Shown one piece after another: positions 15,001 through 18,000 of a stretch of 37,505 bases of DNA. Location of the stretch: IMG/VR virus record IMGVR_UViG_2541047777_000011, one strand, 5' to 3'. The DNA comes from a virus (lineage: Duplodnaviria; Heunggongvirae; Uroviricota; Caudoviricetes). The position numbers are program-made. Every line of letters starts with the position of its first letter. Within the stretch, counting starts at the first letter, position 1.

Positions 15001-18000
15001 CATTTACTGAATTCCACTCATCGGCGAAAGAAATAAGATGACCGGTAGCAAAAGCCCCGGCAAATGCCCCCGCCATATTCAGTGCCGAAGATTTAGCTGT
15101 ATTTATCTGATCCGTCACTTCTGCCAGTGCACGCCGCATTTCACGGGATGCAGCAGCGGACTGCCGGCCTCCGTTCTGCATGGTACGGTAGTAATCCTGC
15201 CCCATACGCGAAGCCCGGGAGATCTCTGACTGGAATGACCGGGAATTTGCCGAGATTTTAATAATCAGTTCACGTAATGTCGCCACACTCATTCTCCGGA
15301 CGAAAAAAAACCGCCGAAGCGGTTATGTTGACTCACTGAGACACTATTAAAAGCGCGTTTTCCAGTCCGGCAAATGGATCTGATACGCCTTCTGTCTGCT
15401 CCTTCTCCCACTGAAGAAGCGCATCATTCAGTGGCACTTTGACCCCCTGCGCACCGTAAACAGCTGAAACAATCTGGGCAGCCCGGATATCAGCCCGTTC
15501 GTCCCCCAGCGGGCTGAACCTGTCAAATTCTGCCCACATCATGATTTCTGATGCGGACATTTCCCGGCGTAACTCTGACAATGTGCGCCCCATCCTGAGC
15601 GCCAGCATCATCAGAAAACGCATCCCCGGAAGCGCTACTTTTTTTTAACCTCGCCGGCATCACTGATCAGTTCCAGAGACTGCCGAAGAAGCCGCGCATG
15701 CACCGGGCCATACACGGCAATCACCTGTTCACGATCATCCTCTGAAAATACGGGTTGCAGTCCGGTATCACACAGAACATCAATGAACAGTTCAACATCT
15801 GCCTCCAGATTTCGGCGGGCGCGCTCCGCAACGGATAACGGTGTCTCATCATCTTTTGCTTTAACGATCTCCTGCCAGCGCAACCAGGCTTCTGCAGAAG
15901 GTTCCCGTAACACAACCGTTGCTCCCTCCCATTCAGGCACATCAACGGTTTTATGGCGAAACCCCGACATCGTTGCCAGTGCCAGATTACGGATATTTTT
16001 AGTCATCACATCCATCCTCATTAACTGACGGTTACAGTGCAGGAAGTGGAGGTCACTTTGTTAACCGGGCTTGCTGAATCAGAAATCTCGCAGGTATATG
16101 CACCCGCATCACCGGATACTACCAATGCCTTACTGAACGTTGCCGCCGTCTGTCCGGAAACAGGAGAACCACCTTTCTTCCAGACATAAGAATAAGGCGG
16201 CACACCACCCGCAGCCTCAACCGCCATTTCAAGTTTCGCTCCGGAAGCAACCCGCAGCGTGCTTTTTAAATCGGCCTTCACTTTCAGCGGCTCTGTCGTC
16301 AGCACAGGTTTACCTTTCAGGCGCAAGGAAAACGTTGCAGCCACAACACCATTGGTTCCTGCAGACCAGGTATGCTGACGCACCTCTGCCATAAAGGTAA
16401 ATCCGTTGCCTGACGGAAAAATAACTTTAAAGCCATACGTGGTGTCATTGTCATAGGCACTGCGCAACGCGTTCTGGGCAGCATTCAGATAAAAGTTGCC
16501 TGACATGGAAATCTCTGAAGCAGCCCCAAGGCCGTTAATATTTTCCTGCTCAACAGAACACAGCGTGGTGACATCAATATCCTGCTTTTGTCCTGCGGTA
16601 AACTGCACCTCTTTGATTGTACAGCTCAGGCCAAGATAGCTGGCAGAATCCAGGGTTTCTGCTGTTACCGGTGCAGACGAAATCATAATTTTCGTCAGTT
16701 GCGAACGCTCAAAATTAGAGGACATACTCGTCTCCTGAAAATAAAAAAACCCGCCAGCGGCGGGTGGGTAAAATCATTAATGACCTCAGGCTATTACTTG
16801 GAATTCAAGCGTGGCTCTGCTCAGACGGGAGTCAGGATCATAACCCTGCGTTTTAGAAATAACGGAGGGTGCCAGTTTTCTTACCGCATCAAGCGCCTGC
16901 TCACGAATATTATCTGCGTCATCAGGTACTGTCGCCCAGACATCGATCTGCACGGTAATTCTGGATTCAGCCTGCCCATCAAGCACATCAGATGCCGTGT
17001 CAGACACCACAGAAAACACCAGCCACGGCGGAGATACCGCAGGCTTTCCCTCCGTCAGTGGGACCACATAAGGATAAACCTGTCCTCCGGCCAGCTGAGA
17101 CAACAGGGAATACAGTGTGGCCTCTCTCATTTACTTAAGACCTCATCAATAGCCTGATTCATTCGCTGTATAGCAATCCGTGCTGCCAGTTCCTCTGTCG
17201 TATCGAAAGCCGGGCGAATGAATGGATGCGCGGGCATGTTTATCGTTCCCAGCTCCACAAAGCGCCAGTAAAATGCATTTCGGGGATCGCTGGCTTTCAT
17301 GCTGTTATCACTGTTTCCGGTTCGCAGGTTCCGTCCGCGAATGTGGACACCCGAGATAATTTCCCCCCGACGCTTTGAACGCTGAGTGAGAACAACCACA
17401 TTTTTCTTCAGTTTCCCGGTTCGCTCCGGCGCACGTTCAACAACTGCATCCCGCATAACTTCAGCACCGGCACGGGTGGCATCGCGCAGAACCTTATTGT
17501 TTTCTGCCCTGCTGAGCGTCTCCAAATCCCGTGCAATATCCGCCAGGCCGGAAAAATCAAGACTGAAATCCATCACACATTCCCCTTCAGGCTGCAGAGT
17601 ATTTCAAGCCGGGTAGCGCGTGCATCCGGTATTGGTGGACCTTCTATACCCAGAATGGCCCCTTTAAATGCACCGGTCAGCACTTTCAGACGTGAAGTCG
17701 CTGTCACATCGCGCCGGAATCTCATCCAGACTCTGACCGTAGCCTGAGCGGTTTCTGCTCCGCCTGAGATTATCTCCCTCCCGCTGATACCCTTAACTTC
17801 TGCCCATACGGTAGCTCCCTCCGTCACCGTCTCCACCGGATGCCCTGACGGAGAGCGGGCGGTGGTGACATTCAGAATAATTACGCGATCACGTAATCTG
17901 CCCGCCTGCATGTCTCCTCCTACAAAGGAATAAAACGATAAGGCTCCAGCAGAGAAGAAAAACCAAACGGGACTGGTGCCTTGCTGACATCTGAGGAATT

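Follow-up and report, generated by a model that had tools for sequence, protein, structure and literature searches.

In bacteriophage lambda a -1 ribosomal frameshift yields the tail proteins G and GT at a ratio of 30 : 1, and this frameshift is widely conserved (PMC5009743). The gp14 record of HK97 is entered as a joined coding sequence (CDS) that is 'translated due to a -1 frameshift', and the ECs1801 type (Escherichia coli O157 Sakai prophage; phage BP-4795 ORF65/66) forms cluster A_AAA_AAG_25 of Sharma et al. 2014. The phenomenon is therefore already known, as the HK97-type family and the layout of a heptamer followed directly by a stop codon have been catalogued (Sharma 2014). Our study examined the G and T genes of IMG/VR record IMGVR_UViG_2541047777_000011, a virus of the Caudoviricetes that is an E. 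coli prophage; the window, that is, the whole stretch of DNA analysed, comprises 37,505 nucleotides (nt). G and T of this HK97-type siphovirus tail module are very probably one recoded pair, expressed by -1 ribosomal frameshifting. This reading is carried by what was observed here, namely the build of the site, the homology of the pair, and a frame, slip codon and spacing that are kept throughout the family. Biologically, it would be a confirmation of the textbook G/GT frameshift, which is conserved in long-tailed phages.

The site was read directly from the sequence, in which the minus-strand zero frame runs ...GGC GAG GTT AAA AAA AAG TAG. The following elements make up the site and the two genes that it joins.

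15635..16021, minus strand: gene G, tail assembly chaperone, zero frame (PF06222 Phage_TAC_1, 2ob9_A)
15644..15638, minus strand: slippery heptamer A_AAA_AAG, in the X_XXY_YYZ phase (sequence reading)
15635..15637, minus strand: zero-frame TAG, the end of G, directly 3' of the heptamer (sequence reading)
15645..15647, minus strand: -1 frame TAA, directly 5' of the heptamer (sequence reading)
15639..15646, minus strand: run of eight A residues (A8) that includes those of the heptamer, a possible site of RNA polymerase slippage or DNA length variation
15333..15638, minus strand: T segment of 101 codons in the -1 frame, running from position 15638, where the G is read a second time, to the TGA at 15335..15333 (PF06223)

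The first-pass annotation had stated that G ends across the heptamer, and this is what the sequence holds, as the last sense codon of G is the AAG within the heptamer and the TAG (15637..15635) adjoins it. The -1 frame is closed by the TAA at 15647..15645 and is open from 15644, so a productive shift could occur only within the 10 nt of heptamer and stop (15644..15635). The 96-amino-acid (aa) open reading frame (ORF) called from the ATG at 15623 is part of the T segment, and the claim that it lies exactly in the -1 frame relative to G was borne out, since (16021-15623) mod 3 = 2.

In the mechanism that we propose, most ribosomes would translate G (123 aa) and stop at the TAG, and a small fraction would move back one nucleotide on the heptamer. 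This could happen by two routes: the two tRNA-Lys(UUU) may exchange their pairing with AAA-AAG for one with AAA-AAA, or the tRNA-Lys in the P site may move on A_AAG with the stop codon in the A site. Shifted ribosomes would then read GTA GCG CTT... and stay in the T frame as far as 15333, giving a GT protein in which ...DAGEVKKK is followed by VALPGMRFLMM... and whose predicted length is 224 aa if translation starts at Met 16006 and 229 aa if it starts at Met 16021. The predicted junction-specific peptides are VALPGMR or KVALPGMR for a tryptic digest and VKKKVALPGMRFLMMLALRMGRTLSE for Glu-C. Although the ORF of G opens at ATG 16021, overlapping the stop of the major tail gene as TAATG, the true start is likely to be ATG 16006 (123 aa), which is preferred on the basis of an AGGA Shine–Dalgarno (SD) sequence 8 nt upstream, the start of the Pfam alignment and the choice made by RefSeq (WP_000164661.1, 372 nt). 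The choice between these two starts has no effect on the frameshift site. By analogy with lambda, G and GT would act as chaperones, the G part of both binding the tape measure protein, its expected partner, and the T part recruiting the major tail protein; both would be absent from the virion, and their ratio would be important.

Both parts of the pair were assigned to known families with confidence. G matched Pfam PF06222 Phage_TAC_1 (E=2.7e-58, 195.7 bits against a cutoff of 25, aligned from residue 6) and the solved structure 2OB9, entered in the PDB as 2ob9_A 'Tail assembly chaperone' (E=4.6e-49), while T matched PF06223 Phage_tail_T (E=4.1e-19, 69.2 bits against a cutoff of 25.9). In addition, the single 224-position profile phrog_14766 was matched by G at positions 1-121 and by T at positions 126-220, which indicates that this profile represents fusions of exactly the predicted length.

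The heptamer is unremarkable by frequency, as AAAAAAG occurs 15 times in the window compared with 8.6 +/- 3.2 in shuffled sequences and is not rare in itself. Six strong heptamers lie in phase within open frames of at least 90 aa in the window, and only the one at 15644..15638 occupies the last two sense codons of its ORF; the -1 extension there is 101 aa, compared with 10-16 aa at the other five. It is thus the placement at the end of the ORF that is distinctive. An in-phase G_GGA_AAG at 17044-17050 (minus strand), inside the tail completion (gp17-like) gene, has a -1 extension of just 14 aa and is probably incidental.

Support came from a comparative set of 42 loci, 9 of them from phages and 33 each from a different bacterial species; these form 17 clusters when grouped at 70% identity and 8 when grouped at 60%. 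T was in the -1 frame relative to G in every one of these loci, and each had an A_AAN codon within the overlap (AAG in 39, AAC in 2 and AAA in 1), so that an A-site AAG has been kept in 39/42 despite free choice among lysine codons. The heptamers were A_AAA_AAG (16 loci), G_GAA_AAG (11), x_GCA_AAG (9) and G_GGA_AAC (2), with G_GGA_AAG, A_GAA_AAG, A_AAA_AAA and G_TTA_AAG (the last in the degenerate locus L106) found once each. With four exceptions, namely two Burkholderia phages (32 and 38 nt), L121 (23 nt) and L106, the slip codon stood 26 or 29 nt before the conserved methionine of the FLM motif of T. This spacing was constant even though the stop codon of G lay 0, 1, 5, 10 or 11 codons past the slip codon. 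The stop adjoined the AAG codon in 25 of the loci, including the non-canonical x_GCA_AAG members. Among the records themselves, that of mEp234 bears the same -1 frameshift note as HK97, and gp12 of Burkholderia phage KS9 is entered as a joined CDS. A scan of viral contigs with G as the query returned just 99-100% identical copies, which are usable for describing population variation and not for diverged comparison.

Three groups within this set deserve separate description. In nine loci (L006, L109-L111, L114, L115, L117, L118 and L120), from Klebsiella, Raoultella, Pantoea, Erwinia and Kalamiella prophages, x_GCA_AAG followed by TAA is the only shift-prone element of the overlap; a P-site GCA is unable to re-pair in the -1 frame, which points to a single-tRNA slip on A_AAG beside the stop, rather than a tandem slip. 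Locus L106, from Candidatus Symbiopectobacterium endolongispinus, has a degenerate module in which the frame of G is interrupted, leaving an open stretch of 74 codons, and in which a slip site can no longer be recognised at its place; this would fit a prophage that is decaying in the genome of a symbiont. The junctions of L124, titled Mycobacterium sp. MBM, and L125, from Pseudomonas weihenstephanensis, are near-identical (G_GGA_AAC GAC TGA), and the 2.3-kb 'Mycobacterium' contig is probably contamination or mislabelled.

Taken together with gene order, HK97 homology and phrog_14766, conservation across the 42 loci supports the earlier proposal of a programmed -1 frameshift in a G/G-T chaperone pair. 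Several results nevertheless weigh against it. The first-pass annotation had proposed looking for a downstream stimulatory structure, and none was found: the 98 nt examined folded no better than shuffled sequences (z = -1.1), and RNAalifold, applied to 13 diverged members with the heptamer-plus-stop layout, gave 4 pairs at -2.3 kcal/mol with no compensatory change. An upstream SD-like stimulator was also considered and rejected, as the candidate GAGG is just 4 nt from the heptamer and is not conserved. By comparison with dnaX, a spacing of 4 nt is too short for such an element to stimulate a -1 shift. Without stimulators, the heptamer yielded just 0.29% frameshifting in a reporter, and the '[true]' mark of cluster A_AAA_AAG_25 denotes a programmed ribosomal frameshift that is 'safely inferred', not demonstrated (PMC4066793). 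A search of the available literature found no direct experimental proof of the fusion in HK97-type pairs. Within the locus, the heptamer is followed at distances of 14, 26 and 29 nt by ATG codons, from which termination–reinitiation could yield a free T, and almost every member retains the FLM methionine. The 14-nt linker from the stop to Met 15623 carries two non-synonymous polymorphisms among close copies and is only loosely constrained. Lastly, slippage of RNA polymerase would give a product identical to that of ribosomal slippage (...VKKKVALPG...).

With regard to efficiency, A_AAA_AAG ranks with the most effective -1 motifs of E. coli, where its in-phase occurrence in genes is strongly avoided (z = -10.1), and in E. 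coli assays it rose from 0.29% alone to 4.3% when the IS911 stimulators were present and to 39% when the pseudoknot of IS3 was (PMC4066793 Table S3); the lambda heptamer G_GGA_AAG performed in much the same way, at 0.28, 3.8 and 43% in the same assays (PMC4066793). A low-level, lambda-like shift ratio is expected for the present site, at which we infer that the fusion is made at roughly 0.3-4%. The adjacent TAG may enhance slipping as a 'shifty stop' (Weiss 1987, as cited in PMC5009743), an empty A site favouring slippage of the P-site tRNA-Lys. That AAG followed by a stop recurs even where the first triplet cannot re-pair (GCA_AAG TAA) suggests that the stop may help in this way.

The ATG codons raise the question of whether T is translated independently, by ribosomes that terminate at the TAG and reinitiate at ATG 15623 or the conserved ATG 15611, in which case the heptamer would be incidental and no fusion would be made. 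RefSeq and phage records of this prophage do give T as a separate CDS, named "phage tail assembly protein T" or "DUF4035" with 92 or 96 aa, and none of them joins T to G. However, the annotated starts disagree (PGAP gives 279 nt, the Evi record has 291 nt and 606R7 splits T into two fragments), and the RefSeq record of lambda also lists T separately despite an experimentally established fusion (PMC5009743), so that separate annotation carries little weight. Start signals for T amount to the ATG codons and the nearly universal FLM methionine, and an SD match of at least 4 nt was not found before any T-frame start candidate in any of the 42 loci. KS9 has no ATG in the T-start stretch, and L123 has only a TTG, without an SD. 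Moreover, Met 15623 is not conserved, being replaced by I, T, V or L at the aligned position in relatives, whereas, in the alignment of the -1 frame peptides, it is preceded by a Pro that does not vary and by a conserved K-K/V. Translational coupling predicts neither this conservation of residues upstream of the Met nor an uninterrupted -1 frame from the slip site, and it accounts neither for an exclusive -1 relation (42/42) nor for an AAG slip codon at a fixed distance. An independent start for T is therefore disfavoured on comparative grounds, and we regard this explanation as very unlikely. The suggestion in the first-pass annotation that the 96-aa ORF is probably not an independent gene is supported by the unconserved Met, the residues kept upstream and the missing SD.

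Variation among close copies bears on two further explanations. No substitutions were seen in the heptamer among 83 near-identical copies, and codon position 3 accounted for 23/28 variable sites in the frame of G and then for 26/41 in the -1 frame past the slip site. The substitutions indicate purifying selection in both frames. The length of the A tract did vary in public assemblies: two of the 83 IMG/VR copies (L035 and L090) have A7, an allele that puts T beyond the reach of a -1 shift, and 19 contigs were read to encode G-T as a single 224-aa ORF, with A9 in all 10 of those checked (L128-L137). The exact predicted 224-aa fusion is already present in protein databases (CDK90654.1, KZP42445.1 and STQ49536.1), and these entries exist because such contigs encode a single ORF, with A9 in place of A8 where checked. 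Sequencing errors in the homopolymer could account for the A7 and A9 assemblies, or else these represent true alleles that arose by slippage. If the A7/A8/A9 variation were real, it could possibly switch the locus between ribosomal and transcriptional recoding. In either case, a single-base length error in A8 produces a fused ORF (A9) or a broken ORF (A7) that may pass unnoticed, and this affects calls of prophage intactness.

This instability of the tract is one reason to consider transcriptional slippage, in which RNA polymerase would add one A within A8 (15646..15639) and the resulting A9 mRNA would be read conventionally into GT. Bacterial RNA polymerase slips efficiently at runs of 9 (PMC5009743), and AAAAAAA-type runs are avoided in all frames of E. 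coli genes (PMC4066793). The run of 8 found here falls short of the documented efficient length, however, and an A/T run of at least 9, as in Thermus dnaX-type slippage (threshold from PMC5009743), is found neither here nor in relatives, whose runs are 3-8. What the family keeps is the in-phase A_AAG codon and not a homopolymer, as the A-runs of relatives are only 3-4 (G_GAA_AAG, x_GCA_AAG, G_GGA_AAG) or 6-7 residues long. Polymerase slippage needs no conserved phase of the run, yet every member with an A-run has it in phase. As the source of GT, slippage by the polymerase thus appears unlikely, and on A8 it is rated a minor contributor.

A chance or decaying feature of a defective prophage, without selected function at the locus, was also considered. 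Prophages often decay, A7 or A9 indels occur in some copies and L106 is a visibly degenerate relative. Against this, the module is intact, the flanking tail genes are all full-length and both frames are under purifying selection; the same sequence also occurs in induced or isolated phages such as vB_EcoS-640R1, Evi, phi467 and PhiR49_2. Furthermore, 902 of 5,426 complete E. coli genomes carry the prophage, its hosts including reference strains of sequence types ST131 and ST95, and it is 100% identical in EC958, JJ1886 and IHE3034. We consider chance or decay to be extremely improbable. The practical value of recognising ribosomal frameshifting here lies in correcting the annotation of about 900 E. 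coli genomes, in which T would be described as a frameshift extension of G.

The minus-strand gene order around the site is tube protein (16725..16021), G (16021..15635), T (15623..15333) and tape measure protein (15292..12059), with the following features flanking the pair.

16021..16725, minus strand: major tail (tube) protein gene with a C-terminal Ig-like (immunoglobulin-like) domain, directly upstream of G
12059..15292, minus strand: tape measure gene, directly downstream of T (PF06120 Phage_HK97_TLTM E=5e-93, TMP_3, Tape_meas_lam_C)
15309..15324, minus strand: terminator-like hairpin AACCGCttcgGCGGTT with T8 after it, in the interval from the stop of T to the start of the tape measure gene

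The tube gene was assigned from weak Pfam matches to Phage_TTP_11 and Phage_tail_2, plus Ig_2/Ig_3, and phage records label its product as the major tail subunit. A second terminator-like hairpin with a T-run lies at 16749-16765 (minus strand), just upstream of the major tail gene. The HK97 and mEp234 records have putative terminators annotated at positions equivalent to both of these late-operon hairpins, the equivalent of 15309..15324 lying after the moron gp15 in those phages, a gene that is absent from this locus.

Our study also revealed an atypical phage tRNA of the species that slips on A_AAA_AAG.

26169-26478, minus strand: tRNA cluster Met(cat), Lys(ttt), Thr(tgt), Gly(tcc)
26401..26325, minus strand: atypical tRNA-Lys(UUU) gene, ~10.7 kb upstream of the slip site and on the same strand

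The tRNA-Lys(UUU) scored 45 bits in Rfam, compared with 65-74 bits for the neighbouring tRNAs, and its anticodon loop, CCTTTAA, has C at the near-universal U33 position; the T-stem contains an A.C mismatch. It is homologous to the argN tRNA-Arg of Shiga toxin (Stx) phages (loop CTTCGAA), and a compensatory change in the anticodon stem suggests that the gene is maintained. Host tRNA-Lys modification is reported to alter slippage for lambda (PMC3296357). The phage tRNA, as a non-standard decoder of Lys codons made together with the late gene products, could change slippage on A_AAA_AAG in either direction, and the prophage would then tune its own G : GT ratio, although we hold this to be a very doubtful proposition. 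A strict link between the tRNA-Lys and A_AAA_AAG tail modules was rejected, as Stx phages with the same heptamer have tRNA-Arg at that position. Elsewhere, the early/regulatory region of the window holds four matches above the Rfam gathering score.

30412-30587, minus strand: sok antitoxin RNA
36155-36206, plus strand: DicF
36441-36517, plus strand: isrK
36542-36629, plus strand: C4 antisense RNA

Compared with other described systems, the heptamer and the slipping tRNA-Lys(UUU) are the same as those of E. coli dnaX and the IS911/IS3 orfAB genes. Those sites differ in reaching 40-50% efficiency with the help of an SD-like element on the 5' side and a hairpin or pseudoknot on the 3' side, and stimulators of this type (an SD ~10 nt 5' and a stable structure 5-8 nt 3') are neither present nor conserved here. 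The analogy to lambda G/GT drawn in the first-pass annotation held for the mechanism and the T domain, and failed for the family of G. The two systems share the class of mechanism, the role, a Lys-Val junction and the lack of need for a strong stimulator (PMC5009743). The T domain is PF06223 in both and starts 28-29 residues after the slip, with M-G-R 16 residues after it. In contrast, lambda G matches PF06894 (Phage_TAC_2) only and the present G matches PF06222 only, and lambda uses G_GGA_AAG with G running six codons beyond. Pairwise BLASTP of the predicted fusion against lambda GT was not significant, the relation being visible only at the profile level. By these profiles, the present G lies outside the lambda gpG family proper, its likeness to lambda being one of mechanism and T domain. 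Of the features by which lambda G/GT-type frameshifts are recognised (Xu, Hendrix & Duda 2004, cited in PMC5009743), gene position, an in-phase shift site in a -1 overlap and conservation in relatives were all found.

The ECs1801 type has the same signal layout as the present locus, with A_AAA_AAG as the last two sense codons, then TAG-C and the -1 extension. Its G has 124 aa, with the motif ending at codon 124, and its fusion 226 aa, against 123 and 224 aa here; the proteins are 63-67% identical and the A-run is 6 residues, compared with 8. HK97 gp13/gp14 (NC_002167 7472..7858; joined CDS to 8145) is 64% identical in amino acids to the pair over both parts, and gp13 scores 203 bits against the PF06222 model. 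HK97 differs in its sequence GCG CGG GAA AAG, where the slip site is likely to be G_GAA_AAG, and in having five more G codons before the stop, whereas A_AAA_AAG abuts the stop here; it also has gp15 between T and the tape measure gene. It agrees with the present locus in gene order, in the -1 frame, in the position of the slip codon relative to the T domain and in the combination of PF06222 and PF06223, which, with phrog_14766, places both parts of the pair described here in the HK97 gp13/gp14 family.

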